A stretch of DNA of 64,000 nucleotides from an uncultured Kiritimatiellota bacterium (GCA_944389565.1 CALXMV010000002.1:49309-113308); one strand, 5' to 3'; positions 2,455 to 43,411 are shown, counted from the first letter of the stretch. Program-made: numbers and translations. Notes: generated by a model not told the origin, from the letters alone.

Positions 2455-3342
2455 TTATCGCGCTTGAGGCGCCGGGCAGAAGACGCCGATAAGCGACGTG
2501 TTTGTGATAATTCGCGCAAAACGCTTTTTGCGCATGAACAGGGTCGCCGCATGATGGAGACTTAACGTCAAATCCTGCAACGTCGCGTCTTCCTCGATCA
2601 TCTTGACCGTAAGCCCGGCCTTTTGTGCGGCCTGTGCGGAAATGTGACGGTCGTGCGTTTTGGACGTATCGTGTTGGGCGAAGACGCGCAATACATGGTC
2701 GATACGACTCGCTTTGTCCTCGGCGTCGCACAGCATCCCGGACTCAAGCCAGTCTTTTGAGACCTGGCGCGCCAGCTCCGTGGCTTTTTGGCATTCCCCC
2801 AACAGCGTCATGGGATACTTGCTGATAATCGGTTGCCATAACAACGCCAGATTGGGATTCTCCGCGATATCCTTCTTTGCCTGGGCGAATTCTTCGACGA
2901 TTGCGTCCGTCCGATATCCTCCAAGCGCAGGGTCGATCGGCCCCAGGCAAGAATGTTTGCCCATAAGGATCTCACGGGCGCACATCGCCAACAGCGTGCC
3001 GCACGACATGGCCATATGCGGGATGAACACGGAGATATTCGTGCCAAACACCGACCGTAAATAAGACCCGATGCCCTCGGTTGCAGGCACCGACCCTCCC
3101 GGAGTGTGCAAGAACAGGTCCAACCCGTCCTGCTTCGGCATCCTGTAAATGGCGGACATGAACCCTTCCATATCCGCTTCCTGGATGTTTGAGTCCTCGA
3201 ACCCGAAAAGGAACCCGGAGTAGTAGAGAATCAGGTTGCGCCCACGATGGGTCGCAAACTGATTCATGTACTTCTGCAAGACGTTGGCCACGCCATCCGG
3301 TGGGGTGGCCTCGTTCTGGATTTCGAGATTTGACGGTGCCAT
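2455..3342 (-). CDS. SDH-family (ClpP/crotonase-fold, S49-related) serine protease
   Basis: A minus-strand ORF. The Met at 3342 is preceded by AGGAAG in reverse complement. Motifs LHTPGGSV and HMAMSCGT are typical of the serine-dehydrogenase proteinase family. GC is lower than in flanking DNA. Confidence 0.6.
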   Translation of the reverse strand: MAPSNLEIQNEATPPDGVANVLQKYMNQFATHRGRNLILYYSGFLFGFEDSNIQEADMEGFMSAIYRMPKQDGLDLFLHTPGGSVPATEGIGSYLRSVFGTNISVFIPHMAMSCGTLLAMCAREILMGKHSCLGPIDPALGGYRTDAIVEEFAQAKKDIAENPNLALLWQPIISKYPMTLLGECQKATELARQVSKDWLESGMLCDAEDKASRIDHVLRVFAQHDTSKTHDRHISAQAAQKAGLTVKMIEEDATLQDLTLSLHHAATLFMRKKRFARIITNTSLIGVFCPAPQAR

Positions 3343-3353
3343 GGCAATTCTTC

Positions 3354-3551
3354 CTAGCGTTCGGAGACGACCGGGCTCTTCGCGTAGAATTGGTAAGGGG
3401 ACGGGCCGTGCGGGTCGAGCCCGGCACGTCGAAAAGCCTCGTCGCGAAAGACGAACGCATGGCCGGGCATGCGTGACTGGATATCCATCAATCGCAACAC
3501 CGTCTTGACGCGCACGTCTTTCAGAACGCCATTCGATACAAGCCTTTTCAT
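3354..3551 (-). CDS. Small hypothetical protein (65 aa) immediately upstream of the protease and coupled to it
   Basis: In reverse complement, GAAGGGAG plus a 6-nt spacer precedes the ATG at 3551. Its stop lies 12 nt before the protease start. No recognisable motif. Confidence 0.35.
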   Translation of the reverse strand: MKRLVSNGVLKDVRVKTVLRLMDIQSRMPGHAFVFRDEAFRRAGLDPHGPSPYQFYAKSPVVSER

Positions 3552-3696
3552 GCAAAACTCCCTTCGCTCGCCAGTATCAAACAAGAACGCATAGTATTAA
3601 ACCACAACCCGCGGCCCCCGCGCAACTTCCCCGGACATCCCGTCCATTTGCGTCCGCGCGCCCCGCAAACGCCCGCGCTTTTGGCACAGTGTCCTC

Positions 3697-6600
3697 GTGC
3701 GGGGCGCCCGCGCCGGGCCCATCCCCCCTCATACCACCACCCGGCGCGGGCGCCCCGCCTTCTCACACACGGGAGCGAACGCAGTGAGCGACACCGACAC
3801 CACCTTCCAGGAACTCTTCCACGTCATCGAGCGCGACACCGGCGCCGAGCGCTACGTCCCCGTCGCCCAAAGCCGGGACTACGCCCGCGCCATGCGCGAG
3901 CAAGGCCGCGACTTCGACCTCCTCGAGGACTGGGAGTCCGACCAAGGCGAGCGCGTCGCCGTCAACCCCGAGAAGCGCGAGGCCTTCCTCCAGGCCGCCC
4001 GCGAGCGCGGCATCGCCGTCCGCCAAAAACGCCCGATGTGGGACGGCGCCACCACCCTCTGGACCGACGGCCAGGGCGGCGCGATCGCCGTCGGCCAAGC
4101 CAAGCGCGAGGCCTACCAGGCCGCCGCCAAGGAACGCGGCCTCGCCGTCGCCGAGATCGGCCCCGAGCCCACCTTCCTCGACCCCGAGGAGGCCGACAAG
4201 GAACTGATGGGCCGCGAGCACGGCGGCTTCGACTGGGGCTCCCTCCTCGACGGCCTCAAGTTCCCCGCACGCCTGGCCGGCTCCGCCGCGCAGGGCATCC
4301 TCGCCCTGCCCACCCTCGCCGCCCTCGGCGGCGAATACGCCGCCGCCAAGGCCGGACTCATCGAGGAAGGCGCGCACCCCGTCTCCGGCGTCGGCATGAA
4401 GGCCATCGACGCCATCGAGCGCGCCAAGCCCGAATACACCTTCGCCAAAGACCAATCCCTCCCCGGCCGGGCCGCCAACGCCCTCATGGGCGGCCTCGAA
4501 TTCATGGGCGCGCTCGCCGCCGGCGGCGCCGCCGAGCAAGGCATCCGCGCCGCGGCCGGGGCCGCCACCCGCGGCGCCGGCGCCCTCGGCGCCACCCGCC
4601 AGGCCGCCGAAAGCATCGCCCGCGGCGGGGCCGCCGCGGCGGACGACGCCACCGCCCAGGCCGCCCGCGCCGCCGCGCCCAAGGCCACCGCCGCCGAGCA
4701 GAGCGCCATGCGCCAGGCCCTCGCCGACGTCGCCACCGCCATCCCCCCCGGCACCCCCGCACAGGAAGCCGCCAAGACCCTCGGCGAGGCCTACCTCCGC
4801 CGCCTCCCCGCCGCCCAATTCCGCGAGGGCGCCCGCCAATTCGCCCAGGCCGCCCTCCGCCCCGGCCTCTGGAAGGCAGCCCCCGTCGCCCTCGGCGCCC
4901 TCGACGTCCACCGCGCCTACGCCCAGGCCGGCCACTCCGAGGACAAGGCCATGCTCGCCACCCTCGGCGACGCCGCCCTCGGCTACCTCCTCGTCTCCCT
5001 CGGCGACGGCTTCGGCGCCTTCGGCGGGGCCGCGGCCACCACCGGCGGCACCCGCTTCTTCCGCGCCCTCGCCGGCAACGCCGCGCGCGACCCCAACCTC
5101 AGGGCAGCCCTCGCCGCCGGCGCCGCCAACGTCCTCGGCTCCGCCGCCACCGGCGCCGGCCAGGCGGCCGGCCACCTCGCCATCCTCCGCGGCGCCCTCG
5201 GCGAGGAAGAAATCTCCGACGCCGACCTCCTCGGCGCCGCCGCCCTCGGCGGCCTCTTCGGCGCCGTCCCCGCCGCCGCCCAGGCCATCCGCCCCATCCG
5301 CCAGGCCATCGCCGAGGACATCGCCACCGCCGCCGCCCGCGCCCAAGCCGCCGCGCAACGCGCGGCGCGTGAATCGCCGACCGTGAATCGTGAATCGCTC
5401 ACCTGGCGCCCGCTCGACGCCACCGACCCCAGCGCCCCGCCCGACACCCCGCAGGGGCCAAACGCGGGCGGCGTGTGGCGCAGCCCTACCCAACGCGATT
5501 CACGATTCACGACTCACGATTCACGGGCCATCGCGCCAAGCGCGATGGCCGCCCCCGTCGCCGTCAGCGACGCAGGCGACATCCTCTTCCGCTCCGGCGC
5601 CATCTGGCGCGCACGCACCGGCGACCTCCTCATGCCCTCGGGCGCCGTCGTCTCCCCCCAAGGCGACATCCTCACCGCCGCCCCACCGCCCGCGCCGCAA
5701 CCCCAGCAACCCACGCCCGCGCAGGACGACCTCTTCGGCCTCCCCCCGGACCCGGCGCAACCCCCCGCGCCGGCGGCGGGGCAAGACCCGGCCGGCACGC
5801 TCGCGCTCTACGACCTGCTGCGCGAGGCCGACGTCCAGGTGCACAACGTCCCGATCGGCCAAATCCAGGTCAACCGCGACATCAAGCAATTCAAGGCCGA
5901 TGCCGACCCCGTCACCGGCGTCGTCGCCGGCGAGGAACTCGGCGGCGAGTACCAAGCCGTCCCCGCCAAGCCCATCCTCCTCCTCGAGAAGCTTGACGGC
6001 AGCCTCGAGGTCGTCACCGGGCGCCACCGCCTCGACCTCGCCCGCCGCAACAACCTCCCCACCATCCCCGCCAACATCATCCGCATGGCCGACGGCTGGA
6101 CGCTCGACATGGCCCGCGCCCTCGACGCCTACGACAACATCCTCGACGAGAAGGGCTCCGACCAAGACTTCATCGACTTCTTCCGCCGCGCCCGAATCGA
6201 CCGCGCCACCGCCGAGGCCAAGGGGCTCGTCACGCGCAAGAAAGGCCGCGACGCCTTCGACGTCGCCGAATACGCCTCCGAGGACCTCTACGCGCTGGCC
6301 ATGGGCGACGCGCGCATGGACGCCCAGACCGCCGCCGCCATCGCCCGCGAGGCCCCCGTCCCCCGCGCCGCCGGCCAGCGCGCCCAAGGCTGGAACCAGA
6401 ACATCCAGGCCGCCGTCTCCCGCGCCGTCCTCGAGGAGGGCCTCCGCGCCGACGACGCCGCCATCATGGCCCGCTCCCTCCGCCAGGCCTACGCCCAGCG
6501 CATCCGCGAGCGCGGCCTCGAACAGCTCGACCTCTTCGGCAACGACGACACCTTCATCCTCGCCATGACCGTCGAGGCCAAGTTCGCCGCCCAGCAGATC

Positions 6601-9600
6601 CGCCAGATCGACTTCGACCTCCGCGGCCTCAAGACCGCCGCCGGCAAACAATCCGGCAACCTCGCCGCCCGCGACACCCTCATCCGGAAATACCGCCTCA
6701 AAGGCCCCGAGGACCGCGAGGGCATGGCCCGCGCCATCGCCGCGCTCGAGGAGCAGAAACGCCGCTGGCAGAACTACCACACCGACCCCGAGCTCGCCGA
6801 GCTCGCCCACGCCCACGCCAAACGCGCCCTCCGCCTCGAGGCCATCGAGCAAGAGGCCGCCGCCGAGGCGACGCAAAGTGTCGCCCGTGAATCGCCCGAG
6901 GGGCAAAGCCCCGCGCCGCAGCCCGCCCCCGCCGCCGAAGCGGCACCCGCCAATCAGCAGATCGGCCAATCGGCGAATCAGCCGGCGGCGCGAAGCGCCG
7001 AGCCGCGCGTGCTCCCCGCCGCGACCATGCGTGACGCGAAAGCCCACGTCGACAAGCTGGCCGAGGACAAGGTGGAGGTCTCCACGCTGAACGGCGACAC
7101 CCTCCGCTTCTCCAAGCAAATCAAGAAAGCCTACTCCAAGGCCGCCGAGAACCAATCCGACGACCGTGCCGCGCACTGGGCCGCCGTCGCCGCGCTCGAA
7201 CATCTGTGTCAAAGCGCGGACCACATCTTCAAGGAGCCGCCCCGGAACGGCAGCGCCGACATCGCCTACTATCACAAGTACGCCGCGCCGTTCGTCCACG
7301 GCGGGGTTGGCTACATCGCCAAGATCACGGCCAAGGAATATCCCAGGCAGACGGCCCGCGGTGTTTACTCCGTCGAGGCCGTCTCCCTCGAACGAATCGG
7401 CGACCGGGGAATCCATGCCTCCATCGCAAACGGACAGACGCTCGACCCGGTCGCCACTGATAAGATAGCCCAAATGGCCGAGCGCGTCAAGCGCTTTCTC
7501 GACCAGCCCGCCCTCGCGCCGGAAGCCGCCCCCATCGCGGCGGCGCCCGAAAGCCAAGCCGCCACCCTCCCCCTCGAGCCGCCCCCCAAACGCCCCCCGC
7601 TGGGCACCTCCCGCGCCCTCATCGCCTGGCAGCGCGCCCACGCCCTCCCCGGCCTCCCGCCGGACGCCGTCGTCCTCATCCAATACGGCGACTTCGTCGA
7701 GACCTACGAGAGCGACGTCCCCGCCCTCCGGGCCGTCACCGGCGCCGAGCCCACCACGCGCTACGGCCGCACCCTCGTCGGCGCACCCAAATCCGGACTC
7801 CCCGCCATCCTCGAGGCCCTCGCCGCCCAAGGACGAACCGTCGCCCTCGTCCCCCGCACCCTCGACCAAGCCGAGATCCGCACGCCCCCCGCCACCCCTA
7901 AGACGCCCCTCACCCAGGATCCGCCCAGCGCGCCGACGGACTCCCCCGCACGCCCCTACTGGGGCCCCAACCGCCCACTCCCCGACACCGGCAAACCCCG
8001 CATCGACGTCACCATCGGCGGGGACCCCACCTACACCGTCGAGGATTCCGGCCTCGACCCCTCCGCGCCCCTCCCAGACGACACCGTCGTCTGGGAGACC
8101 GCCACCCTCACCGGCGCCGGGCACGCCGTCGCCTGGCCCGTGCGCGCCTACGGCAAACCCACCGGCATCGACGGCGCCGCGCTCATCGGCGAGAGCGGCA
8201 TGCGCGCCATCCGAGAGGCCCTCGCCAAAGGCGCCGCCCTCGCCAAGGAACGCACCGCGCTCTACGCCGGGATCCCCGCCAACGAAAACGCGAAGGCCCG
8301 CGACAGACGCCTCGCACGCACCGCCGAGATCGAGGCGGGCGAGGCACAGACCGTCCAAGCCATCGAGGCCGTCCTCGACCGCGTCCGCGAACCCGCCGCG
8401 CGCTACGGCACCCCCGCCGTCGGCCACCTCGTCCACGGCAAGGACAAGGACGGCGCCATGCGCCTCTGGCGCATCGTGGAGCGCGGCAGCCAAAACTCCG
8501 ATACCCTCCTCCCCGACGGCACCGTCGTCCACACCCGCCAGCTCGACGGCGATTCGCACCAACGCTGGGTCACCCGCCCCGACGGCACCGACACCCCGCG
8601 CGAGACCTGGTGGCGCACCCGCAACGCGGACGGCACCGCCAACCCCTTCACCTCAATGGACGCCGACTTCTACGGCGACGCCCCCCAAACGCCCCCCGTC
8701 GAGGCGCCCGGCGGCACCCTCGCCAGCCCCGCGCCCGACGGGCCCTCCCTCGCCGCCTACGGCCTCACCGACGAACAGCTCAACGGCCCCGGCTTCCGCC
8801 CCCTGGCCAAGGGCGAGAACTTCGACACCGTCACCCAAGGCACCCTCGCCCGGCGCAACCAAACCGCCCGCAACGCGCGCCTCGGCACCGAAGCCGCCAT
8901 CCGCGGACGCAACGACGCCAGGAAGATTGGCCACACCGCAAAAGAAGGCGAGAACATTCGCGCCCACCAATACGCAGCCAAAAACGTCCTGAAACTCTAC
9001 GAACAGGCAGAGGTCGCCGTCCGCTCCGACAACTACAAGACCCACGGCAAAGGTAGCGCCCCCAAGACCTACGCCCGCCTCTTCGCCCCCTTCGTTTTCC
9101 AGGGGCGCACCTACGTCGCCGTCATCGCCCAATACGAGGCCAGGCAAAACGGCATCCACGCCATCGAGGTCCTCGACACAATCGAGGCGGGCCGCCTCCC
9201 GGAAGTCACCTCCGGCGAAACCCAACGGGACGCACGGCCGACCGAGAGGCAACCCGCCTCAAACACCCACAGTGTCCCACAAACTGTCCGTCCTGTCAAT
9301 CCCGCCACGCGCTCCGAACTCACCGAGCCCGTCATCGACCGCCTCATCGGCGAAAGCAAACGGCTCAACCCCCGCGTCCTCACCCTAGGCGAGGACGGCA
9401 CCCTCGCCGAGACCCCCACCGACGCGGCCGCCGTCCTCGCCGACGTGCGCGCCGCGGTGGCCCGCTTCGAGGAACGCGCCCGCGCCATCGCCAAATACCG
9501 CCCCGAGCCCGACCCCGCCGCCCTCGGCCGCTTCACCTTCCCCGCCCTCCCCGGCGCCACCCTCGACGTCGTCGATGGCCGGGCCACCCTCACCCTCCCC

Positions 9601-12600
9601 CCCGGCCACACCTTCCCGCAAGCCGCCGCCCTCGTCCAGGCCGTCCGCGCGCAACTCCCCGCCACCACGCGCCTCTCCCTCCAGGGCACCCGCAGCCGCT
9701 TCCTCGGCGCCTACGCCAACCCACCCGCCGCACAGCCTGCCGCCCCCCGCCCGGCCGAGACGTCCGTCGCCCCGTCAGGGGCGGGCGATTCGCAATCCGC
9801 GATTCACGATTCACGGGGCAGTGGGGCCTCCGGCCTCGCCGCCTACCGCGGCAGCCACCGCGCCCCCAGCCGCGCCGACATCGCCGGCGACGAGGACGAC
9901 ACCACCGTCCCCCTCCGCGACTGGGCCAAGATCGTCCCCGGCGACACCTTCACCCACCCGGAACGCTACTTCGGCGCCAACGCCCTCGCCCTCGAATCCG
10001 CGCGCCTCATCGCCCGGGCGTTGGCCGGCAAGGCCAAAACCATCACCGTCTACCGCGCCGTCCCCGCAGGCCTCCCCGAAGCGCGCCTGAACGACGGCGA
10101 CTGGGTCACCCCCAGCAAAGCCTACGCACAGACCCACGGCCGACACGCGCTGGGCGGCGACTACCGCATCCTCGCTCAGCGCGTCGCCATCGATGACCTC
10201 TTCTGGAACGGCGACAGCCCCGCCGAGCTCGGCTACGACAGCGGCCGCAACCCCGCCCCCGACACCCTCGCCAACCCCGCGCCCGGCGCGCCCGCCCCGC
10301 AAGGGGCACAGCCAATCGGCCAATCCGCCAACCCGCAAATCAGCCAAGCCGGCGCCTATCCCATGCGCGGGGAGGTGACGCCGCACCCCGCCAACCTCGG
10401 CGGCGCGCCAGGCAGTCCTGCCCGCGAGCACGCCCGCATCCCCCTCGCCCTCCCCGACCTCGTCCTGCTCTACAAGGAGCTCACCGAGGGCGCCGTCCCC
10501 CGCGTCATCCACAACCGCGCCAACATGGCCAGCGACCTCGGGCGCTACCGCGTCGGACAAAACGCCATCGAGCTCGCCGGCCGCGTCTTCGGCATCGTCG
10601 ACGACTCCGACCTCGCCACCCTCAAGGAGCGCCTCCGCGCCCGCGGCCTCTTCCGAAACGAGGACCCCGCCTGGTGCCTCACCATGCCCCGCGCCGCCAT
10701 CGCACGCGAGAAGCAGATCTCCGAGGAACGCCTCGCCCGCGAGCTCCGCGCCCTCATGACGCGCCGCGTCCGCGCCATGCACGACGACCTCCCCGCCGCC
10801 AAGGTCATGGCCCACGAGCTCTGGCACCTCATCGACGACCAGGACGGCGGCCTCCGCGGCCGCGGCGACCTCGTCGGCCACCTCGCCGCCCTCAAACACG
10901 CCGCCGCACAGGCCCTCCCCGAGCCCGCCTTCGCCGACCAGCCCGCCCTCGTCGCCGAGGCCAAAGCCTTCATCCGATGGTGGCGCGGCATCGGCCAAGA
11001 CGAGCCCTACTTCGACAAGCCAGAGGAGATGTACGCCGAGATCGGCGCCGCCTACTTCTGTGCCCCAGAGGACCTCAAAGCCCGCGCCCCCCAATGCTTC
11101 GCCGCCTGGGACGCCGCCCTCGCCCGCCACCCCGCCGCCCTCGATGCCGCCCAACGCGCCCGCGCCTACATCGCAACCGGCGGGCGCGACAAACGCCTCG
11201 CCAACGAGCTCGCCGCCACCTGGGGCCGCGAATACCAAGTCGCCCTCCGCCGCTACCGCAACGCCACCGAAGGCTTCGACAACTCCGCCGCCGCCTGGTG
11301 GGACCGCATCCTTGCCGCCCTCTGGGACGACCGCGCCCCAGCCCTCAACCTCCTCAAACGCGCCGTCCGCGCCGCCAAGGCCGAAAACAAACGCAACGCC
11401 AAGGACGACCCCGTCGCCGCCGAGACCCTCGCCGAGGCCGACAAACGCCTCGACGCCATGCTCGCCCACGCCACGCTCAACCACGTCCTCTACCGCCGCA
11501 AAGGCCCCAACAACGCCCGGCTCTACCTCGCCGACGTCAAGGGCGACTTCCTCCGCGCCCTCAACGCCATCGGCCAAGACCAAGACCTCGCCCGCACCTA
11601 CGTCGAGCTCTACGCCACCTACCATCGCATCATCGAGCTCGGCGGCCGCCCCATGCCCCTGGGCCAAACCCCCGCCTCCGCCCGCGCCGGCCTCCTCTAC
11701 ATGCTCCACGACGTCGGCCCCAAAACCTACCGCGCCATCGCGCGCGCCTGGGGCGTCTTCCGCGCCCTCTACGAGCGCGACGTCATCGAACGCCCCGCCA
11801 CCGCCGAGCTCCTCGGCCCCGACTTCGTCAACCTCATGCGCCAAAACGCCCACTACGTCACCTTCCGCCACGCCCCCACCCCCGAAACCCTCGCCCAAGC
11901 CGACCGGCGCGCCCACGAAAACCCCCTCGATGAAGCCGCCCGGCGCCTCCTCAAAACCGCCAACCCCGCCTCCGACGTCGCCAAGATCCTCAAACCCCTC
12001 AAAGGCTCCCACGAACCCATCCAAAACCCCCTCCTCGAGACCATGCGCACCGCCGTCGCCATCATCGTCGCCGCCGAGCGCAACCAAATTGTCCTCGACT
12101 GGGTCCGCGCCCTCCGCGAGCTCCACGCCCCCGACATCCTCGAGCGCGACGGCGCCCACACCACCAACAACCCACGCCTCGGCACCATCGACTTCTGGGA
12201 AAACGGCCAACGCAAAACCCTCATCGTCCCCCGCCGCGTCGCCGCCGGCTTCAACGACACCACCCCCGATTGGCTCCGCTCCATCACCGCCGCCACCCGC
12301 ATCCTCAACGCCGCCCTCACCACCAACAACCCCGGCTTCGTCCCCATCGCCCAAGCCCGCGACCTCTACTCCGCCGCCTACAACATCCGCGGCCTCCACC
12401 GCTGGCCCCTCCACTGGATCCCCGCCGCCGGTGACGCCGCCGCCCTCCTCACCCAATTCATCCCACCCGCCGCCATGCGCGCCATCGGCGAGCACCCCCT
12501 CGGCCGCCTCCTCCTCAACCCCAACACCATCGAATACTGGACCAGCTTCGGCAACCGCATGGCACGCCTCATCCACTCCGGCGACTTCCGCGGCGAGCTC

Positions 12601-15504
12601 GAACGCGCCCGCCAAGACCGACTCGCCGGCCGCGAGGCCCAAGCCCAACAGCGCGAATACCTCGTCCAGATGGCCCGCCGCGCCCTCCAAGACGGCATCC
12701 TCCTCAACATGGTCCAATACCGAAAGCTCACCTACGACGCCTCCGGCTGGAAAGCACTCTTCGACGAATACCACCTCGACTTCGACGAGCCCCCCCTCGA
12801 CCCCGAATCCCCCCTCCGCAAAACCCTCCTCGCCACCCCACGCGCCATCCGCGCCCTCTGGAACGCCACCGGCACCGCCTCCGAAATCGCCTCCGCCACC
12901 ACCAAACTCGCCGTCTACGCCTACCTCAACCAACCCCTCACACCCCCACCCGCCGCCACCCCCGCGCGGCGTGAAACGGAAATCGTGAATCGTGAATCGC
13001 GAGAAACGGGAGGGGTCGCGCGCCCCGCCCCCGCCGCGCCCCTCGCCAACCCCGCCCCCATGCGTCTGGCCAACGGCCCCGGCGGACTCCGCCTCGTCGA
13101 AGGCGCCGCCCCGCAGTCCAAGGACATCTTTGGCATGGACCCGGCCCAGATCGACGCCCTCGCCGCGCTCGCCGACCAAGCCGACGCCCTCCCCCCGGAC
13201 ACCCCCTGGGAGGACGACGCCCTCCGCCAACTCGCCCGAAAAGCCCAAATCGCCCGCGAACGCGCCAAGGCCGACGCCGACCCCCACTGGTACCACGCAC
13301 TCCCCTGGGAACGCCGAGCCCAAGCCGCCGTCGCTCAAACCCGCGCGACCATGGGCCGTGGCACCGACAACATCGACACCCCCGAACGCGACGCGCTCCG
13401 CCGCCGGATCGCCGAGCGCCTCTACAACGGCGGCTCCGCCGAGAAAGGCCGCAAACTCTTCGTCGTCATGGGCCTCCCCGGCAGCGGCAAATCCTCCGCC
13501 GTCGTCAAGAACCTCAAAGCCGAGGTCGGCGACCTCGTCGAAGTCGACGCCGACGAGGCCAAAACCCACCTTCCCGAGTTCCAAGGCGGTAAAAACGCCG
13601 ACATGGTGCATACCGAATCCGGCAAAATCGCCGAGGACTTCCTGCTGCGCGGACTCTGTTTCCCAAACGGCGACAACATCGTCTTCCCAACCGTCGGCAA
13701 AAACACCCAAAAGCTCGAACACCTCTTGCGCGAAGCCAAAGAAGCCGGCTACGCCGTCTACCTCTACAACGTCCGCATCCCCATCGCCGAATCCGCCAAC
13801 CGCGCACTCCGCCGCTACGTCGAGACCGGACGCTTCGTCCCCCCGGACTACATCGTCGACGCCGTCGGCGACAAACCCGACCGTACTTTTGCTATACTCA
13901 AAGACAGAAAGGACCTAGTCGATGGCTACGCAGACCTCTCCAACGACGTCCCCTTCGGCGCCCGACCCCAAACCCTGGAAACATCCCGTCGACCCCCTGC
14001 AGGACTGGGACAACGAGGACTATCTGTATCTCTGGATCCTCGCCAAGGAATACCTGGCCAAACAGCTCGGCCGGGAACCGACCTCGGCGGAGGTGCGCGC
14101 GGAAATGGGCTGGTAGGCGACACCCTCGCCCTCCCCGCCCCCGGCGCCGCCCCCGACGCCCCACGCGGCGCAGGCCAAGCCCCCGGGCCCGACAACCCCA
14201 TAATCTCCGACGCCGACGCCGACGCCAAGGCCATCCTCGAATCCATCGTCTGGCGCGCCACCGTCCTCGCCGGCGACCCCACCTTCGACATCCGCGGCAT
14301 CCTCCTCACCCCCATCGAGCTCGTCTTCGGCCCCTTCATCAACGCCGCCCTCAAAGGCACCTTCCGCTTCGTCCAGACCATCGCCGACACCCTCCCCGAC
14401 GCCCGCCCCGACGGCCGCCCCCGACGCCGCACCCCACTCCTCAACGCCGCCTCCTACGCCGGCAAGATCGGCGCCACCCTCGCCCAACGCCTCATCCTCA
14501 CCGCCCTCTCCACCGGCGGCCTCGTCACCGCCGCCGCCCTCGCCCTCTTCCGCGCCGCCACCGGCAACCCAAACGCCACCGAGCAAGACCTCATGGACTC
14601 CCCCCTCGGCCCCGCCGTCCGCGGCGCCGAACGCCTCGGCCAAGGCTACCGCAACATCTCCCCCTACCTCCTCCAAAACTACAACACCCTCCCACTCTAC
14701 GTCGACGGCGACATCACCATCGCCCTCACCCTCCCCATCGCCGACGAAGAGCGCTTCCCCATCCTCCTCCTCGACGCCACCCTCAACAAACTCGGCTTCC
14801 CCTGGACCCCCAACCCCGCCACCGGCCCCGCCGACGCCGCCGCCAACCTCATCGGCGCCCCCGTCAACTCCCTCCGCGGCCAAGGCACCCTCATCCAATA
14901 CCTTCACCTCCTCTCCCCCTTCCTCTTCAACTACAACCCCTACGACAACTTCCGCGGCCACAAAATCCTCCCCGAGGCCGAATTCGCCGCCCGCTGGGAC
15001 AACCCCGCCGCCGCCGCCACCATCGCCAACCGCCTCATCGAATCCACCCCCCTCGCCATCGCCTGGAAACCACCCCAGCCCCTCACCCCCGAGCAACAAG
15101 CCTCCCTCGACCGCACCCCCTGGCTCGGCCGCTTCCACGCCACCCTCACCCGCGCCCCCCTCCTCTCCACCATCGCCGGCCGCCTCATCCGCGTCCAGAT
15201 CGGCGGCGAGGCCGACCGCATCCGCCGCCTCCGCCGCCTCGACCAGCAACAAGCCCTCGCCGTCCGCCTCCTCGCCCGCCAGAACTACGCCCTCACCCAG
15301 CTCGGCCTCCCCCCGCAGATCCCCCAAGACCTCCCCCCCGAATACGCCAAGGACTACTTCGAGGCCTGGTTCGCCCGCCAAGACGAGCACCTCGCCGCCC
15401 GCTCAAGCGCCCACCGCCGCAAACGCCTCATCCAAGACGCCCTCGCCATCCGCGACCCCAACCTCCGCGACCGCGCCCTCCGCGCCCTCCGACACCTCCC
15501 CTGA
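3697..15504 (+). CDS. Giant multidomain 'polyvalent' protein of 3,935 aa. Contains a ParB-like nuclease domain (nt ~5805-6110), a twice-repeated unknown ~90-aa domain (nt ~7108-7410 and ~8920-9210), an HExxH zincin-like motif (nt ~10812-10826) and a zeta-toxin-like P-loop kinase domain (nt ~13380-13905).
   Basis: A single stop-free frame of 11.8 kb, far beyond chance. ParB signature VTGRHRLDLARRNN. Metallopeptidase motif AHELWH. Walker A GLPGSGKS followed by a zeta-toxin-like region. A GTG at 3697 begins the ORF. An alternative GTG at 3784 has a better RBS (GGGAG at 3771-3775). Confidence 0.75.
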   Translation: MRGARAGPIPPHTTTRRGRPAFSHTGANAVSDTDTTFQELFHVIERDTGAERYVPVAQSRDYARAMREQGRDFDLLEDWESDQGERVAVNPEKREAFLQAARERGIAVRQKRPMWDGATTLWTDGQGGAIAVGQAKREAYQAAAKERGLAVAEIGPEPTFLDPEEADKELMGREHGGFDWGSLLDGLKFPARLAGSAAQGILALPTLAALGGEYAAAKAGLIEEGAHPVSGVGMKAIDAIERAKPEYTFAKDQSLPGRAANALMGGLEFMGALAAGGAAEQGIRAAAGAATRGAGALGATRQAAESIARGGAAAADDATAQAARAAAPKATAAEQSAMRQALADVATAIPPGTPAQEAAKTLGEAYLRRLPAAQFREGARQFAQAALRPGLWKAAPVALGALDVHRAYAQAGHSEDKAMLATLGDAALGYLLVSLGDGFGAFGGAAATTGGTRFFRALAGNAARDPNLRAALAAGAANVLGSAATGAGQAAGHLAILRGALGEEEISDADLLGAAALGGLFGAVPAAAQAIRPIRQAIAEDIATAAARAQAAAQRAARESPTVNRESLTWRPLDATDPSAPPDTPQGPNAGGVWRSPTQRDSRFTTHDSRAIAPSAMAAPVAVSDAGDILFRSGAIWRARTGDLLMPSGAVVSPQGDILTAAPPPAPQPQQPTPAQDDLFGLPPDPAQPPAPAAGQDPAGTLALYDLLREADVQVHNVPIGQIQVNRDIKQFKADADPVTGVVAGEELGGEYQAVPAKPILLLEKLDGSLEVVTGRHRLDLARRNNLPTIPANIIRMADGWTLDMARALDAYDNILDEKGSDQDFIDFFRRARIDRATAEAKGLVTRKKGRDAFDVAEYASEDLYALAMGDARMDAQTAAAIAREAPVPRAAGQRAQGWNQNIQAAVSRAVLEEGLRADDAAIMARSLRQAYAQRIRERGLEQLDLFGNDDTFILAMTVEAKFAAQQIRQIDFDLRGLKTAAGKQSGNLAARDTLIRKYRLKGPEDREGMARAIAALEEQKRRWQNYHTDPELAELAHAHAKRALRLEAIEQEAAAEATQSVARESPEGQSPAPQPAPAAEAAPANQQIGQSANQPAARSAEPRVLPAATMRDAKAHVDKLAEDKVEVSTLNGDTLRFSKQIKKAYSKAAENQSDDRAAHWAAVAALEHLCQSADHIFKEPPRNGSADIAYYHKYAAPFVHGGVGYIAKITAKEYPRQTARGVYSVEAVSLERIGDRGIHASIANGQTLDPVATDKIAQMAERVKRFLDQPALAPEAAPIAAAPESQAATLPLEPPPKRPPLGTSRALIAWQRAHALPGLPPDAVVLIQYGDFVETYESDVPALRAVTGAEPTTRYGRTLVGAPKSGLPAILEALAAQGRTVALVPRTLDQAEIRTPPATPKTPLTQDPPSAPTDSPARPYWGPNRPLPDTGKPRIDVTIGGDPTYTVEDSGLDPSAPLPDDTVVWETATLTGAGHAVAWPVRAYGKPTGIDGAALIGESGMRAIREALAKGAALAKERTALYAGIPANENAKARDRRLARTAEIEAGEAQTVQAIEAVLDRVREPAARYGTPAVGHLVHGKDKDGAMRLWRIVERGSQNSDTLLPDGTVVHTRQLDGDSHQRWVTRPDGTDTPRETWWRTRNADGTANPFTSMDADFYGDAPQTPPVEAPGGTLASPAPDGPSLAAYGLTDEQLNGPGFRPLAKGENFDTVTQGTLARRNQTARNARLGTEAAIRGRNDARKIGHTAKEGENIRAHQYAAKNVLKLYEQAEVAVRSDNYKTHGKGSAPKTYARLFAPFVFQGRTYVAVIAQYEARQNGIHAIEVLDTIEAGRLPEVTSGETQRDARPTERQPASNTHSVPQTVRPVNPATRSELTEPVIDRLIGESKRLNPRVLTLGEDGTLAETPTDAAAVLADVRAAVARFEERARAIAKYRPEPDPAALGRFTFPALPGATLDVVDGRATLTLPPGHTFPQAAALVQAVRAQLPATTRLSLQGTRSRFLGAYANPPAAQPAAPRPAETSVAPSGAGDSQSAIHDSRGSGASGLAAYRGSHRAPSRADIAGDEDDTTVPLRDWAKIVPGDTFTHPERYFGANALALESARLIARALAGKAKTITVYRAVPAGLPEARLNDGDWVTPSKAYAQTHGRHALGGDYRILAQRVAIDDLFWNGDSPAELGYDSGRNPAPDTLANPAPGAPAPQGAQPIGQSANPQISQAGAYPMRGEVTPHPANLGGAPGSPAREHARIPLALPDLVLLYKELTEGAVPRVIHNRANMASDLGRYRVGQNAIELAGRVFGIVDDSDLATLKERLRARGLFRNEDPAWCLTMPRAAIAREKQISEERLARELRALMTRRVRAMHDDLPAAKVMAHELWHLIDDQDGGLRGRGDLVGHLAALKHAAAQALPEPAFADQPALVAEAKAFIRWWRGIGQDEPYFDKPEEMYAEIGAAYFCAPEDLKARAPQCFAAWDAALARHPAALDAAQRARAYIATGGRDKRLANELAATWGREYQVALRRYRNATEGFDNSAAAWWDRILAALWDDRAPALNLLKRAVRAAKAENKRNAKDDPVAAETLAEADKRLDAMLAHATLNHVLYRRKGPNNARLYLADVKGDFLRALNAIGQDQDLARTYVELYATYHRIIELGGRPMPLGQTPASARAGLLYMLHDVGPKTYRAIARAWGVFRALYERDVIERPATAELLGPDFVNLMRQNAHYVTFRHAPTPETLAQADRRAHENPLDEAARRLLKTANPASDVAKILKPLKGSHEPIQNPLLETMRTAVAIIVAAERNQIVLDWVRALRELHAPDILERDGAHTTNNPRLGTIDFWENGQRKTLIVPRRVAAGFNDTTPDWLRSITAATRILNAALTTNNPGFVPIAQARDLYSAAYNIRGLHRWPLHWIPAAGDAAALLTQFIPPAAMRAIGEHPLGRLLLNPNTIEYWTSFGNRMARLIHSGDFRGELERARQDRLAGREAQAQQREYLVQMARRALQDGILLNMVQYRKLTYDASGWKALFDEYHLDFDEPPLDPESPLRKTLLATPRAIRALWNATGTASEIASATTKLAVYAYLNQPLTPPPAATPARRETEIVNRESRETGGVARPAPAAPLANPAPMRLANGPGGLRLVEGAAPQSKDIFGMDPAQIDALAALADQADALPPDTPWEDDALRQLARKAQIARERAKADADPHWYHALPWERRAQAAVAQTRATMGRGTDNIDTPERDALRRRIAERLYNGGSAEKGRKLFVVMGLPGSGKSSAVVKNLKAEVGDLVEVDADEAKTHLPEFQGGKNADMVHTESGKIAEDFLLRGLCFPNGDNIVFPTVGKNTQKLEHLLREAKEAGYAVYLYNVRIPIAESANRALRRYVETGRFVPPDYIVDAVGDKPDRTFAILKDRKDLVDGYADLSNDVPFGARPQTLETSRRPPAGLGQRGLSVSLDPRQGIPGQTARPGTDLGGGARGNGLVGDTLALPAPGAAPDAPRGAGQAPGPDNPIISDADADAKAILESIVWRATVLAGDPTFDIRGILLTPIELVFGPFINAALKGTFRFVQTIADTLPDARPDGRPRRRTPLLNAASYAGKIGATLAQRLILTALSTGGLVTAAALALFRAATGNPNATEQDLMDSPLGPAVRGAERLGQGYRNISPYLLQNYNTLPLYVDGDITIALTLPIADEERFPILLLDATLNKLGFPWTPNPATGPADAAANLIGAPVNSLRGQGTLIQYLHLLSPFLFNYNPYDNFRGHKILPEAEFAARWDNPAAAATIANRLIESTPLAIAWKPPQPLTPEQQASLDRTPWLGRFHATLTRAPLLSTIAGRLIRVQIGGEADRIRRLRRLDQQQALAVRLLARQNYALTQLGLPPQIPQDLPPEYAKDYFEAWFARQDEHLAARSSAHRRKRLIQDALAIRDPNLRDRALRALRHLP
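5369..5396 (-). repeat. GTGAATC heptamer array (reverse orientation): GTGAATC gccgacc GTGAATC GTGAATC
   Basis: Seen in sequence. It encodes RESPTVNRES in a linker of the giant gene. Confidence 0.8.
5497..5524 (+). repeat. GATTCAC x4 array, identical to 1187-1214
   Basis: Seen in sequence. Forms an inverted pair with 5369-5396 across 100 bp. Confidence 0.8.
9787..9814 (+). repeat. Heptamer array GATTCGC AATCCGC GATTCAC GATTCAC followed by GGGG
   Basis: Seen in sequence. It encodes a linker with the sequence GDSQSAIHDSRG. Confidence 0.75.
12971..12998 (-). repeat. Heptamer array, reverse orientation: GTGAAAC GGAAATC GTGAATC GTGAATC
   Basis: Seen in sequence. It encodes RRETEIVNRESRE. Confidence 0.75.
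13887..13898 (+). promoter_or_regulatory. Extended -10-like element TTTTGCTATACT internal to the giant gene, 23 nt upstream of the embedded ORF
   Basis: An exact 12-mer copy of the element at 28701-28712, upstream of the gene at 28722. It fits the TGnTATACT extended -10 pattern. The surrounding region is locally AT-rich. Confidence 0.4.
13922..14116 (+). CDS. Embedded (overprinted) small ORF of 64 aa, in the +1 frame relative to the giant gene
   Basis: ATG at 13922 is preceded by AGAAAGGAC. GC3 is ~80% in this frame, whereas the giant-gene frame falls to ~38% over the same stretch. The product has ordinary globular composition (W, Y, K and L). The segment LAKQLGREPTSAEVRAEMG resembles sigma-70 region 3.0 (…EMGREPTPEELAERM…). 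Confidence 0.35.
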   Translation: MATQTSPTTSPSAPDPKPWKHPVDPLQDWDNEDYLYLWILAKEYLAKQLGREPTSAEVRAEMGW

Positions 15505-15724
15505 AATCCCCATCCCGCTTGCACAAATCCCATCACACCCCGACATAACCCATTAAACCCCCAACGCAAACACATAGGCTCCTAGGTTTCAGTCGTGGCT
15601 CCACCCCGGATTGGCCGTGCTGATTTGCTTTGCCGTTGCGAGCAATCTTGTTTTCCGAGAGACGTTTTGCTATTCTTATACGCGTTGATGGGCGAGACGC
15701 CCAGATGTTCACACGGAGTTTGCC

Positions 15725-28650: not shown

Positions 28651-28721
28651 CCCCTGACGCCCCCGGACGGAAACGAGCGGCGCGCCCCATGCGCGCCGCC
28701 GTTTTGCTATACTATGCGGCC

Positions 28722-35237: not shown

Positions 35238-35303
35238 GCCGTTTCCCGCTTGCGCGCCGCGCCACGCTTTGCTAGACTTCAGGTATCAGCAAAGGAGTCC
35301 GAC

Positions 35304-40337: not shown

Positions 40338-40753
40338 CCCCCCCGCCGCCGACCCGCGCGTCCCTGCCCCCCGACCCTGCGCATGGTTCACCCCCGACCC
40401 TGCGCAGGGTCGGCGTTGGTTCGTGCGCGACACGCCCCTAAAAAAGGTCTTAAGCGGTCACGGGACCGCCAACACCCCTTTTTCGAGGGAAAACCGAAAA
40501 TCACGAAAAGTGATTGCAATCCGAATGGTTATTTGATATTTTCCGAAGCGTTGTCCCCATCGGGGCGTCTGTGAAAGGAACGATTCATGACTGACACCGT
40601 TTGCGATGCGTCGCGCTTCGCGGCGATACACGACAAAGACTTCGCCATGGCCCACACGCTGCCGGGCTACCGTCTCGCAGTCCCCCGCGCACACCTGTCT
40701 TGACTGCCTCCGTTTTGCCAACCTATGTGTGTTTTTTTGCGAAAGGATCGACT

Positions 40754-42310
40754 ATGACCCCCACACCGCCCGTCGCCGTCGAGAAGAAGGCCGTCGCCAC
40801 CCTTCCCGAAAACGTCCGCTCCTTCATCGTTCCCTCCTACCAGCGTGGTTATCGTTGGGGCGAAGTCCAGGTGCGCCAACTGGTCGAAGACCTCAGGGAG
40901 GCCGCCGAGAACGGGAAGCCCTATTGCCTCCAACCGCTGGTCGTGCATGGGGACAAGAACACAAAAGAATGGCGTGTCATCGACGGTCAGCAACGCCTGA
41001 CGACCCTGTGGCTTCTGCTCGACGCCCTGGGGAAACGCCCCTCGTGGCAGTTATGTTACGAACGGCACGGCGGCGTGACGAAGCCCCTGGACATCCCGGA
41101 AGGGACACCGGACGCTTTTTTCGTCACCCATGCCCGGCAAGCGCTGAGCGAGAGCCCGGGGTTGGAAGCCTATCTCGACGACCCGAACGGCCCCTTTTTC
41201 CTGTGGTACGAGCCGGAAGGCAAGGAAAGCGACATCTTCGCGCGCCTGAACGCCGGCAAAATCCATCTCTCCAACGCGGAGCTCATCAAGGCCGCCCTGC
41301 TTGACAGGCAGGCGGACGTCAACGCGCGACAGTGGGACGCCGTCGAGCAACGCCTGCAAGACGAGGACTTTTGGTGTTTCGTCAATCCCGAGCCGGACGC
41401 CGCCCGCTTCAGCGCCGCCCGTATCGATTTCCTCTTTGAGCTGTGGATGCGGCGAGGGGGGAACGGGAAAAGCGACGATTTCGCGAAGAACCCGGAGCAG
41501 GCCTTCCGACGCAATCCCTTTGTCGTCTACGAGGCGGTCGTGGGCACGAAAGAGGCCCCAAACGACACAAAGGCGGTCTGGCAGGAGGTCTGCGAGATCT
41601 CTGACAAGATGAACGAGTGGTATGACGACCCATGGCTCTACCATCTCATCGGTTTCCTGATGGCCAACCGCGTCAAGAAGCCGGAAGAGCGATTCAGGAC
41701 CCTGCTGGAACTGCTCGCCAAAGTCACGCCCAAAAAGGCGGGTCAGGCGGAAGAGCCGTTGACGAAACACGGTTTCGTGCAGGAGGTCAGGGAGCGCTGC
41801 CGACAGGCAATCTTCGGGGACAGGGAGATCGAGGCTTGCCTGGGGGGATGGGTGTATGGGAAGAACAACAAGGAAATCATCGCCGCGCTTCTCCTCTTCA
41901 ATCTCGCGCTGACGCATCACGCGGGATTGGAACGGACGCGTTTCCCGTTCGGCACCTTTCGGGGAACAGGTTGGAGCATCGAGCACATCCACCCGCACGC
42001 GCGAGGCGGAAGCGATGCGTTCGGCAATTTGACGCTCCTGCCAAAAGGGGACAATGCGGCGTTCAGCGACGGGATCTTCCACGAGAAACGGAGTTGTTTT
42101 CGGAAATGGTTGGGGGTTGACGGCACGGATGGCCCGTCTGACGGGCCAAAAGGATTCATCCCATTGGGCACGCGCCTTGTCTTCGCCCGTTTTGTCGGCC
42201 GTGAGGCGCCCGAGGAGACTTCAGGGGATTGGGACGCCGAAAAGGACGGCGGGCCGTATCAGGCTTTCGTCGCCAAGACCATCGAGACCTATCTGCCGAA
42301 CGGAAAATAA
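40754..42310 (+). CDS. GmrSD-like type IV restriction/DNA-modification-sensing protein (DUF262 ParB-like N-domain plus DUF1524 His-Me finger C-domain)
   Basis: AAAGGA RBS before the ATG at 40754. DGQQRLTT motif. C-terminal EHIHPHARGG…GNLTLLPKGDN. The island has lower GC. Confidence 0.75.
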   Translation: MTPTPPVAVEKKAVATLPENVRSFIVPSYQRGYRWGEVQVRQLVEDLREAAENGKPYCLQPLVVHGDKNTKEWRVIDGQQRLTTLWLLLDALGKRPSWQLCYERHGGVTKPLDIPEGTPDAFFVTHARQALSESPGLEAYLDDPNGPFFLWYEPEGKESDIFARLNAGKIHLSNAELIKAALLDRQADVNARQWDAVEQRLQDEDFWCFVNPEPDAARFSAARIDFLFELWMRRGGNGKSDDFAKNPEQAFRRNPFVVYEAVVGTKEAPNDTKAVWQEVCEISDKMNEWYDDPWLYHLIGFLMANRVKKPEERFRTLLELLAKVTPKKAGQAEEPLTKHGFVQEVRERCRQAIFGDREIEACLGGWVYGKNNKEIIAALLLFNLALTHHAGLERTRFPFGTFRGTGWSIEHIHPHARGGSDAFGNLTLLPKGDNAAFSDGIFHEKRSCFRKWLGVDGTDGPSDGPKGFIPLGTRLVFARFVGREAPEETSGDWDAEKDGGPYQAFVAKTIETYLPNGK

Positions 42311-42320
42311 GGAGACCGCC

Positions 42321-43385
42321 ATGCACGAACCAACCTTTCTGCGCGAACTAACCTTTCTGGATGCCTTGCGGAAACGGCCCATCGTCATCCCCGCGATTCA
42401 GCGCGACTACGCGCAAGGGCGCGACACAACCCAAGCGGCGAACATCCGCACGGCGTTCGTGCGGCGGCTGGATGAGGCCGCCCGTGACCCGGGACGGGCG
42501 CTGAGCCTCGACTTGGTGTACATGGCCAAGGACGACAAGGCCGACTGGGTGCCTGTGGATGGGCAGCAGCGCCTCACCACGCTCTTTCTCTTCCATCTCT
42601 ATCATCTGAAAGACGTCTCCGACCTCAAACGCTTCAGTTATGCGGTGCGCCGCTCTTCACAGGCTTTCTGCGAGAAGGTCGTGGAGCGACAGCCGGACTG
42701 GAAGGGATTGGTGGAGGGAGGGCAGTATCCCACCCCCTCGGCGGCCATCCGCGACCAAGTCTGGTTTCTGAGCGCGTGGGAACGCGATCCCACCGTCAAG
42801 GGGATGCTCCAGACGCTGGACACCATCCACGGGGAAGCCAAGCAGAAAGCCCCGCTTCCGGAAGGATGGGAACGGAACATCACCTTTTGGGGCTACGAAC
42901 CCGAGGGGGACGCCGACGTGATCTACCGCGAGCTCAACGCCCGCGGCAAGCCGCTCACGCCCTTCGAGAACCTCAAAGCCTTCATCGATGGCCGCCCCGG
43001 CGTGACGAAGGACTGGAGAACGAATATCGACGGCGCATGGCTGGACGCGATCTGGGGGGCCGTCGAGAAAACGGAAGACCCGGAGTCCGCGTGCGACACG
43101 GCGCTGCTGACGCTGACGGTGGCGACACTTCTTGTCCGGGCCGTCGCGAAAGGCTCGGTCTCCGAGGAAACGGACGTCCAGGAAGCATTGGCCGTCCTGA
43201 TGGATCCCAACGCCTGGCTCTCGGACAATCTGCGAGAACGCCTGTGCGACGATGCCGCGCCTGAGGCGTTGGACAGGGATTTCGGGAAGGTGGCGCAGGA
43301 CGGCGGCAAGGAAGCCGCCGACCGGATGACCGCGCCCTGGGAGACAGGGGCAAGTTCCCGCTCATCGACAAACTTGCGCGGATAG
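42321..43385 (+). CDS. Second DUF262 (ParB-like NTPase/nuclease) protein; its reading frame probably continues by a -1 shift into 43265..44440
   Basis: AAGGAG RBS. DGQQRLTTLF motif. GC3 collapses after ~43345 while the -1 frame becomes codon-like. Confidence 0.6.
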   Translation: MHEPTFLRELTFLDALRKRPIVIPAIQRDYAQGRDTTQAANIRTAFVRRLDEAARDPGRALSLDLVYMAKDDKADWVPVDGQQRLTTLFLFHLYHLKDVSDLKRFSYAVRRSSQAFCEKVVERQPDWKGLVEGGQYPTPSAAIRDQVWFLSAWERDPTVKGMLQTLDTIHGEAKQKAPLPEGWERNITFWGYEPEGDADVIYRELNARGKPLTPFENLKAFIDGRPGVTKDWRTNIDGAWLDAIWGAVEKTEDPESACDTALLTLTVATLLVRAVAKGSVSEETDVQEALAVLMDPNAWLSDNLRERLCDDAAPEALDRDFGKVAQDGGKEAADRMTAPWETGASSRSSTNLRG

Positions 43386-43411
43386 CCAACGACCATCTCA
43401 CGTATGCCGAC

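Follow-up and report, generated by a model that had tools for sequence, protein, structure and literature searches.

A probable 64-codon gene nested out of frame in a giant polyvalent-protein gene, beside its zeta-toxin-like kinase domain

How does a very large gene come to be read without interruption across a small gene that lies inside it in another frame, and what might such a small gene do there? The question is raised by a 64,000-nucleotide (nt) stretch of DNA from an uncultured Kiritimatiellota bacterium (GCA_944389565.1 CALXMV010000002.1:49309-113308; hereafter the window, with positions counted from its first letter), which has a G+C content of ~0.69 and carries a giant polyvalent-protein gene. 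An earlier inspection by a model (the sequence-only reading) had proposed that a 64-codon gene with its own promoter and ribosome-binding site is overprinted, out of frame, on a linker of the giant gene, and that its product may mimic part of a sigma factor. Our analysis indicates that the small open reading frame (ORF) is very probably a real, separately translated gene, and its closest likeness appears to be to the C-terminal tail of free-standing relatives of the adjoining toxin-like kinase domain. The parts of the locus concerned are the following.

3697-15504, plus strand: giant polyvalent-protein gene, one ORF of 3935 amino acids (aa) with Pfam matches to LPD3 and Zeta_toxin; G+C content at third codon positions (GC3) 0.89; homologous modules in loci L001-L011 (tblastn)
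13453-13980, plus strand: zeta-toxin-like P-loop kinase domain in the giant frame, with the final strands '...DLSNDVPFG' and 'PQTLE'
13922-14116, plus strand: probable nested 64-codon gene in the +1 frame, ATG 13922, TAG 14114-14116; 77% identity to protein P0001; ratio of nonsynonymous to synonymous substitution rates (dN/dS) 0.21
13922-13980, plus strand: dual-coding stretch; the giant frame specifies the final kinase strands, and the +1 frame the disordered N-terminal part of the small protein
13981-14133, plus strand: G/R/P-rich linker seen in the translation of the giant frame, spanning the small gene; GC3 0.33-0.41; dN/dS 1.79
14134-15504, plus strand: C-terminal module of the giant protein; the C-terminus of ORF-B in locus L003 shares 46% identity with it (E 1e-103); GC3 0.92

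The ORF and peptide given in the sequence-only reading were reproduced, with ATG 13922 as the sole possible start and the TAG ending at 14116. As a whole, the nested ORF has a GC3 of 0.80 and a second-position value (GC2) of 0.48, and +1-frame GC3 values across it lie at 0.80-0.85. Over 13970-14116, GC1/2/3 is 0.65/0.37/0.82 in the +1 frame, the usual coding pattern of this genome, and 0.81/0.67/0.38 in the giant frame, in agreement with the ~80% and ~38% GC3 estimated before for the two frames. The giant-frame GC3 reaches its minimum of 0.33 here (40-codon windows) against a gene mean of 0.89 (standard deviation 0.087), and this region is the sole strong dip of the 11.8-kb gene, in which GC3 elsewhere never falls below 0.68. 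The only other drop, to 0.68 at 9187-9340, has no prominent alternative frame. The least probable 14-codon synonymous stretch of the giant gene (13996; log10 -19.2, against a mean of -3.1 and a standard deviation of 2.4) lies within the small ORF, followed in rank by one at 13882 (-14.8).

In the giant frame the same DNA encodes the low-complexity G/R/P-rich linker that had been described after the zeta-toxin-like domain. The homology of the C-terminal module starts at 14134, and the first in-frame ATG, GTG or TTG of the giant frame past 14116 is at 14593; the giant frame must therefore be read through the small ORF. Because the giant frame continues as a disordered linker needed to reach the C-terminal module, the linker is the overlaid frame and not the small gene. 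Composition and homologues likewise show the small ORF to be the older coding frame, so that the overlap proposed by the sequence-only reading holds while its direction is turned around. In this arrangement, the folded part of each frame overlies a disordered part of the other.

A search of 5.8 billion proteins for relatives of the small protein returned a single close one, P0001 (64 aa, 77% identity). Gene callers predict it on 17 contigs, which come from independent metagenomes, and it is also present in a metagenome-assembled genome (MAG) labelled uncultured Kiritimatiellaeota. The P0001 loci have a homologous polyvalent gene, with kinase and linker 72% identical in one frame and the small ORF +1 to it (tblastn). 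The nested ORF is uninterrupted in every copy, its length being 64 aa for the window and P0001 (17 contigs) and 82 aa for P0019, P0020, P0021 and L012, which represent a second lineage; in the window, the P0001 loci and the second lineage alike, a stop two codons 5' of the ATG closes the +1 frame. The conservation check suggested with the sequence-only reading came out in its favor, as the ORF, the ATG, the Shine-Dalgarno sequence and an upstream 12-mer are kept in the homologous elements, none of which has an interrupted +1 ORF.

Comparison of the window with L003 over 13970-14113 placed substitutions at 15/48 third positions of the +1 frame and 7 and 7 at its other positions. The +1 frame has a dN/dS ratio of 0.21 and the giant frame one of 1.79; synonymous changes are in significant excess in the +1 frame (Fisher p = 1.7e-4), and the kinase body, read in the giant frame, has a ratio of 0.27. 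Within the dual-coding stretch 13922-13980, substitutions fall at 4/16 third positions of the giant frame, with 1 and 1 at the other positions. These results point to purifying selection on the +1 frame.

The homologous loci showed further features of their own. In L003 2603-4323, and alike in L001, L002 and L004-L011, the kinase-bearing frame is stop-free until 4323, and the next module of L003, from GTG 2636 to 6748, is in the frame of the small ORF, from which it is separated by a TGA and 33 nt. This gap contains three copies of the 8-nt repeat CCAATCAG, and one more copy would bring both large ORFs in frame. Automatic gene calls in L001-L011 and L013 place 400-aa ORFs antisense to the polyvalent gene and overlook the kinase ORF; the coding strand there has a strong skew of C over G.

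Two signals precede the nested ATG.

13887-13898, plus strand: TTTTGCTATACT, a host-type extended -10 promoter-like motif inside coding sequence (ACT TTT GCT ATA, codons at 0.6-3% usage), identical in L001-L003
13908-13913, plus strand: Shine-Dalgarno-like AAAGGA, 8 nt 5' of the ATG, kept in L003

The segment 13884-13923 reads ACT TTT GCT ATA CTC AAA GAC AGA AAG GAC CTA GTC GAT and is the second least probable 14-codon synonymous stretch of the giant gene. Several of its codons are scarce among their synonyms in that gene (ACT 4/226, TTT 3/93, GCT 4/689, ATA 4/164, AGA 2/350, CTA 3/373 and GAT 17/253). The amino acids, TFAILK...VDG, fit the kinase family, and the codons spell the 12-mer, the Shine-Dalgarno sequence and the ATG. 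The last of these is formed by the Asp codon GAT and the G of the following codon within the 'VDGY' segment of the kinase, and AGAAAGGAC at 13906-13914 is separated from ATG 13922 by 7 nt, exactly the spacing reported before. In alignment A3, the Shine-Dalgarno sequence lies inside a 3-residue insertion (DRK) relative to kinases that carry a tail in frame; those kinases are without the insertion and have Ser, Thr or Asp in place of the Gly after the Asp, so that no ATG exists at that site. In the DNA alignment of L001-L003, TTTTGCTATACT, AGAAAGGAC and the ATG are unchanged and the flanks differ at synonymous sites. Thus, the promoter-like motif, Shine-Dalgarno sequence and start codon claimed by the sequence-only reading are all present and kept in homologues, the promoter function being predicted, and they are built into the kinase coding sequence by rare synonymous codons and the 3-residue insertion.

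The 12-mer is not confined to the giant gene. An exact copy stands at 28702-28713 in front of an independent gene, as had been noted, although its coordinate had been given as 28701. Allowing up to 2 mismatches, TTTTGCTATACT has 5 matches in the window versus 0.24 expected, and the shorter form TTGCTANNCT has 6 occurrences versus 0.18 expected. The other five copies are intergenic, 8-48 nt upstream of gene starts, usually with TT ahead.

15667: motif copy; downstream gene at 15725, LysM protein
18727: motif copy; downstream gene at 18767, PEP-CTERM protein
21859, minus strand: motif copy; downstream gene on the minus strand, Na/H exchanger
28704: motif copy; downstream gene at 28722
35269: motif copy; downstream gene at 35303

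Two of the five spacings imply leaderless starts, with the ATG 8-9 nt past the motif. The layout at 35267 (the motif, then cagcAAAGGAGtccgacATG, with the gene at 35303) closely resembles that at 13887 (the motif, then cagAAAGGAcctagtcgATG). No -35-like element is evident at the motif sites, and a sigma-70 scan requiring a -35 element found nothing at the nested-gene site. The neighbors of the giant gene in the window are chromosomal housekeeping genes (Rho, FtsW/RodA, NifU, LptF/G, phosphofructokinase and sulfatase genes). Since the window is chromosomal, the motif is a promoter-like element of the host and not one brought by a mobile element.

What does the nested gene encode? The AlphaFold2 model of the small protein has one folded part.

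14015-14107, plus strand: helix (residues 32-49), 5-residue loop and helix (residues 55-62) of the small protein, predicted local distance difference test (pLDDT) 82-94

The first helix has 18 residues, and residues 1-25, which overlap the final kinase strands, are disordered (pLDDT about 50). The kinase domain itself is well defined: Zeta_toxin (PF06414) matches aa 3253-3390 of the giant protein with 56.6 bits (cut-off 22.3; 3.1e-15), and alignment A3, in which the Walker A motif GSGKS, the DxD motif, R248, R252 and R258 are invariant, prolongs the domain to '...NDVPFGARPQTLE'. The AlphaFold2 model of a relative, P0005, has the final kinase strands at equivalent positions. Through P0005, the closest solved folds for the kinase family are zeta, PezT and AvrRxo1-ORF1, with 3q8x, 1gvn, 2p5t and 4z8q as the top matches.

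Free-standing zeta-like kinases (P0002, P0004-P0006) are about 50% identical to the kinase domain. After '...NEVPFG..P..LE' they continue in frame with a linker of 20-35 residues and then a tail such as VPVQELDEGNITDIFAYINKAEKIKGRPLTFEEINAIANKM (A3). The P0005 model is disordered at 351-379 and then forms a helix (381-398), a loop (399-403) and a second helix (404-413), the same geometry as in the small protein. A profile of the small ORFs matches exactly those tails, with 8.6 bits for P0005 and P0006, more than in all 2000 shuffles, 3.1 bits for P0004 and about 0 for P0002. A comparison of the small ORFs with the tails by hhalign gives P = 4.6e-4. We therefore lean, with somewhat better than even confidence, to the view that the folded part of the small protein corresponds to the kinase tail, as a homologue that has separated from the kinase and now lies in the +1 frame.

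The sequence-only reading had instead likened the product to region 3.0 of sigma-70, so that it might interfere with RNA polymerase or with the recognition of extended -10 promoters. Sigma70_r3 (PF04539) is indeed the sole family match for the window peptide (14.9 bits, E 0.03) and for P0001 (19.3 bits, E 0.0012), but both scores are below the gathering score of 25.3 and the match spans 24 residues, profile positions 9-32 of 78. Likewise, the top Foldseek matches in the PDB are nearly all sigma factors (~31 residues, 30-32% identity, root-mean-square deviation about 0.5 Å), but with E values of 0.78 or worse. The extended -10 character of the host promoter motif also speaks for the idea; however, the AlphaFold2 model has two helices and ends where the third would start, the 82-aa relatives have no Sigma70_r3 match, and among the hits of an exhaustive profile search of 1.8 billion proteins there was no sigma factor, all being proteins with repeated 'LAKxLGRxPT' helix-turn units. 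The likeness is that of a common helix-capping motif ('LGRxPT' type) and is not supported as sigma mimicry. Position and kinase-tail likeness offer a simpler origin, the tail being the better-placed relative, and we regard a sigma mimic as highly improbable.

The profile of the small ORFs also found the 82-aa relatives P0019-P0021, which make up the second lineage (L012, L013 and L015). Their ORFs start from the same Asp-codon ATG and are again +1 relative to the kinase tail. In L015, an intact kinase in frame 2 is accompanied by the small ORF in frame 3 (+1), which starts at this ATG, then by a 174-aa gene in the same +1 frame, and last by a giant methylase/SNF2-helicase gene, again in frame 2. 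Frame 2 is stop-free throughout, the kinase continuing via about 270 G/R-rich codons into the giant. By synonymous resampling, the stop-free frame across the small ORF has P = 0.02-0.16 in L012 and L015. L012 has the arrangement of L015 plus an extra frame break within the kinase. L013 and L014 have lost all but the last 37 residues of the kinase; they retain the small ORF, preceded by a consensus AAGGAG, within an element that carries three integrase genes. That the small ORF of L013 outlived its kinase is reminiscent of an orphan antidote. Finally, L016 belongs to a phage: its terminase, portal, LPD29 and Mu-F genes form a head module, in which the kinase P0007 has its own stop and a 47-aa +1 ORF begins at the same ATG, behind GAGGG at the Shine-Dalgarno position; its kinship to the other small ORFs is uncertain.

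Several observations were made on these loci in passing. The kinase frame of L015 1-2500 and L012 1327-7460 is stop-free over ~270 G/R/A-rich codons that cover two +1 genes (82 aa; 174 or 184 aa). The extra +1 break of L012 lies at about 1390-1425, where the kinase body is in frame 3 and the conserved tail 'QEVVDGYVEVSNDVPRGQPP' in frame 1; it is not in L015 (91.6% identical) and is unlikely to be a single assembly error because the same protein is found on 3 contigs. In L020 3027-3242 (IMG/VR), a high-GC polyvalent ORF with a zeta-like domain, the giant-frame GC3 dips to 0.53-0.60 right after the domain, and a 71-codon +1 ORF ('...WPVEGPDELTSLAKRLRAL...') at this dip may be a decayed counterpart.

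Other explanations of the locus have to be weighed against a live nested gene. An assembly or sequencing frameshift, with the hairpin truly in frame with the kinase, has nothing to commend it beyond the general possibility and is effectively refuted by independent assemblies: the same +1 relation is seen in the window, in 17 contigs of several independent metagenome assemblies, in the MAG and in L015 with its intact kinase, and the +1 stop two codons before the ATG is present in all those loci. A programmed +1 frameshift after the final kinase strand (at CCC_C 13966-13969 or at the C-run 13993-13997), ending at TAG 14114, would give the kinase its native tail in cis and leave unshifted ribosomes to make the full-length protein. 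Such a shift would restore the ancestral protein, since free-standing relatives have the tail in frame, and homopolymer runs occur in the linker of both lineages; in L003-type loci, where the upstream frame is stop-free until 4323 and out of frame with the next module, a shift ending at the TGA of the small ORF would make for tidy gene ends. However, C-runs are common on this C-rich strand, and the two lineages have no slippery site at a common position. The Shine-Dalgarno sequence is placed for the ATG, at 8 nt, and cannot act as a prfB-type stimulator because a +1-frame stop (TAG or TGA) stands between the two; a prfB-type +1 site, in which a conserved slippery codon is joined by a slow or stop codon and by a Shine-Dalgarno sequence ~3 nt upstream, was not found in the lineages compared. 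Frameshifting would also leave the conserved ATG (with its rare GAT), the Shine-Dalgarno sequence and the promoter-like motif without a role, and L013 retains the small ORF without the kinase. We consider it quite unlikely.

The +1 segment might instead be a fossil, left as once-coding sequence by an old frameshift or fusion and now untranslated, so that only the linker matters. Composition alone is compatible with a recent fusion, substitutions between L012 and L015 are even over codon positions, and L020 possibly holds a decayed counterpart. Yet dN/dS in the +1 frame is far below that of the giant frame at kinase-body divergence (0.21 vs 1.79; synonymous divergence, dS, about 0.5-0.7), the ATG, Shine-Dalgarno sequence and promoter-like motif are maintained through rare codons, and the ORF is unbroken and of constant length in every copy of three lineages; a fossil frame is accordingly improbable. 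Unlikely, though less readily dismissed, is a separate small protein with another job, such as helping, as an adaptor or targeting factor, to load the giant protein into a capsid or secretion channel, or regulating the module or gene downstream. In L003, 33 nt separate the small ORF from the next large ORF, which is read in the same frame; in L012 and L015, the 174-184-aa gene comes next. L013 has lost the kinase while retaining the small ORF and the gene after it, and the phage copy lies between the portal and Mu-F genes. Against this, what lies downstream varies by lineage, but the link to the kinase tail, within which the ATG itself falls, does not, and the likeness of the small protein is to kinase tails.

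We thus return to a live nested gene that encodes a counterpart of the kinase tail, made separately and acting on the kinase. To this explanation as a whole we give about an even chance, and to the narrower proposal that the small protein serves the kinase domain as antidote or partner, which is drawn by analogy, a chance somewhat short of even. The toxins zeta, PezT and AvrRxo1-ORF1 are each neutralised by an adjacent small helical protein. By the same logic, the small protein would be produced from its own transcript or by internal initiation, would act in trans on the giant protein's kinase domain, and most likely would keep this toxin domain inactive in the producing cell, like the helical partners of zeta, PezT and AvrRxo1. 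Upon delivery of the giant protein, the inhibitor would stay behind. In polymorphic and MuF toxins, a small immunity ORF directly after the toxin domain is the rule (PMC5576092); an internal toxin domain would have no room for a following immunity gene unless the gene is read across, as seen here.

A number of results weigh against this proposal. The selection test in the clade of the window rests on one diverged pair (dS about 0.5-0.7) and is real but thin, and in the L012/L015/L013 lineage the small ORF has a dN/dS of about 0.9-2.3 versus 0.27 for the kinase, a rapid change that fits diversifying or relaxed selection. The stop-free giant frame over the 64 codons of the small ORF in the window is unremarkable by synonymous resampling (P = 0.47-0.75), and selection for it is therefore not claimed. 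The homology of the small ORFs to the kinase tails is weak, with an hhalign probability of 33%, and the tail in cis in the relatives could equally be a structural or targeting element and not an inhibitor. Pfam and PHROG gave no match of the small protein to known antitoxin families; among the small proteins, the lone PHROG match is a weak one for P0021, to a family of unknown function. The known zeta antitoxins fold as bundles of three helices and their genes precede that of the toxin, whereas the small protein has two helices, is encoded downstream and has no detectable similarity to epsilon or PezA. In addition, ORF inspection and profile search of 24 distant viral zeta-like loci (24-39% identical) found no small-ORF counterpart, which makes the nested-gene family a narrow one.

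Comparison with known systems helps to place the locus. Like epsilon/zeta, PezA/PezT and AvrRxo1-ORF1/ORF2, it pairs a zeta-fold kinase with an adjacent small helical protein. The order differs, as the small ORF here starts inside the 3' end of the kinase and extends downstream whereas the antitoxin gene of epsilon/zeta is upstream; moreover, the kinase is an internal domain of a 3935-aa protein, and its neutralisation is suggested by analogy. CapRel is a fused toxin-antitoxin protein, and if the in-frame tail of the free-standing kinases were auto-inhibitory, which is hypothetical, the window would hold a split form of the same idea, although the folds are unrelated. With the polymorphic and MuF toxins the locus shares a small ORF right after the toxin domain of a presumed delivered protein, and L016 lies by portal and Mu-F genes (PMC5576092). 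There, however, the toxin is C-terminal and the immunity gene a separate downstream cistron, while here the toxin is internal and the small gene is swallowed by read-through.

Genes nested in another frame of a larger gene have precedents. The comS gene of Bacillus subtilis lies within srfAB, in a distinct frame of a very large multi-module gene (PMC12915044), and the large frame reads through unharmed, as in the giant gene. In contrast to the small gene here, comS is without its own promoter, regulates competence and is unrelated to its host enzyme; the nested gene of the window has promoter-like and Shine-Dalgarno signals, and its product has the look of a fragment split off from the adjoining domain, or of a partner to it. 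In the phage lambda spanins, Rz1 is wholly nested in the +1 frame of Rz and both products are functional and act together. These are other proteins with another function, in a small host gene and without toxin logic.

The giant protein has the make-up of a polyvalent protein, a single very large polypeptide with LPD-type and effector domains (cf. PMC5512222), its LPD3 domain being at aa 1112-1217 (Pfam). The survey of such proteins noted a zeta-like kinase for Verrucomicrobium conjugative elements and MuF fusions (Iyer et al. 2017, PMC5512222) and makes no mention of nested or overlapping genes or of frameshifts. The likeness thus extends to the combination of a giant multi-domain protein, an LPD domain and a zeta-like kinase. 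Polyvalent proteins belong to phages and conjugative elements, whereas the window neighbors are chromosomal; relatives of the locus are found beside integrases (L013) or in the phage head module (L016).

Scans of the surroundings gave little else. No conjugation or phage genes were found within the 64-kb window, tRNA and Rfam scans over it returned nothing, and the C-terminal module of the giant protein had no match in Pfam or PHROG. The DNA of 12500-15600 had no match among phage and plasmid records, and matches of the kinase to those records were limited to relatives of 27-35% identity. The small protein had no tblastn match in phage records. In IMG/VR, neither the C-terminal part nor the small ORF gave a hit, and a JGI metagenome scan with the kinase tail was likewise empty.

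Two features of the window lie apart from the nested gene. A lower-GC island (0.61-0.63) at 40601-45263 contains a GmrSD-type restriction endonuclease gene and a BspA-type leucine-rich-repeat gene. A tandem heptamer, (GATTCAC)n, occurs at 882-909, 1187-1214, 5383-5396 (minus strand), 5497-5524, 9801-9814 and 12978-12998 (minus strand), and the heptamer repeat GATTCACGATTCAC has 13 matches at up to 2 mismatches versus 0.24 expected. All (GATTCAC)n copies are within the gene at 731-2230 or the giant gene, in linkers near module borders and in both orientations, and none was found in any of the 43 fetched loci. A 7-nt unit in coding DNA could shift the frame via slippage, or act as a recombination or binding site.

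What the nested gene would mean reaches beyond this locus. Polyvalent proteins are believed to enter recipient cells along with phage or plasmid DNA and to disarm them. The survey that defined these proteins (PMC5512222) does not explain how the cell that makes them copes with their toxin domains. One reading, which we consider speculative and rather unlikely in its full form, is that polyvalent genes may grow by stop loss and out-of-frame reading across small neighbors, the swallowed genes living on nested; in the window, the swallowed gene would be the antidote of the adjoining upstream toxin domain, made from an internal promoter and left behind on delivery. The arrangement of L015, in which the kinase frame crosses two +1 genes via ~270 G/R-rich codons into the methylase-helicase giant, fits this suggestion. 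At the least, the case supplies a promoter-like motif for an uncultured Kiritimatiellota-type lineage. Because gene callers performed poorly on these high-GC loci, calling antisense ORFs and missing the kinase ORF, similar nested genes have probably been overlooked elsewhere. If the proposal is true, read-through across small genes would be one route by which multi-domain genes are assembled, and a nested partner gene at the boundary of a toxin domain would be a concrete answer to how the producer of a polyvalent protein protects itself.

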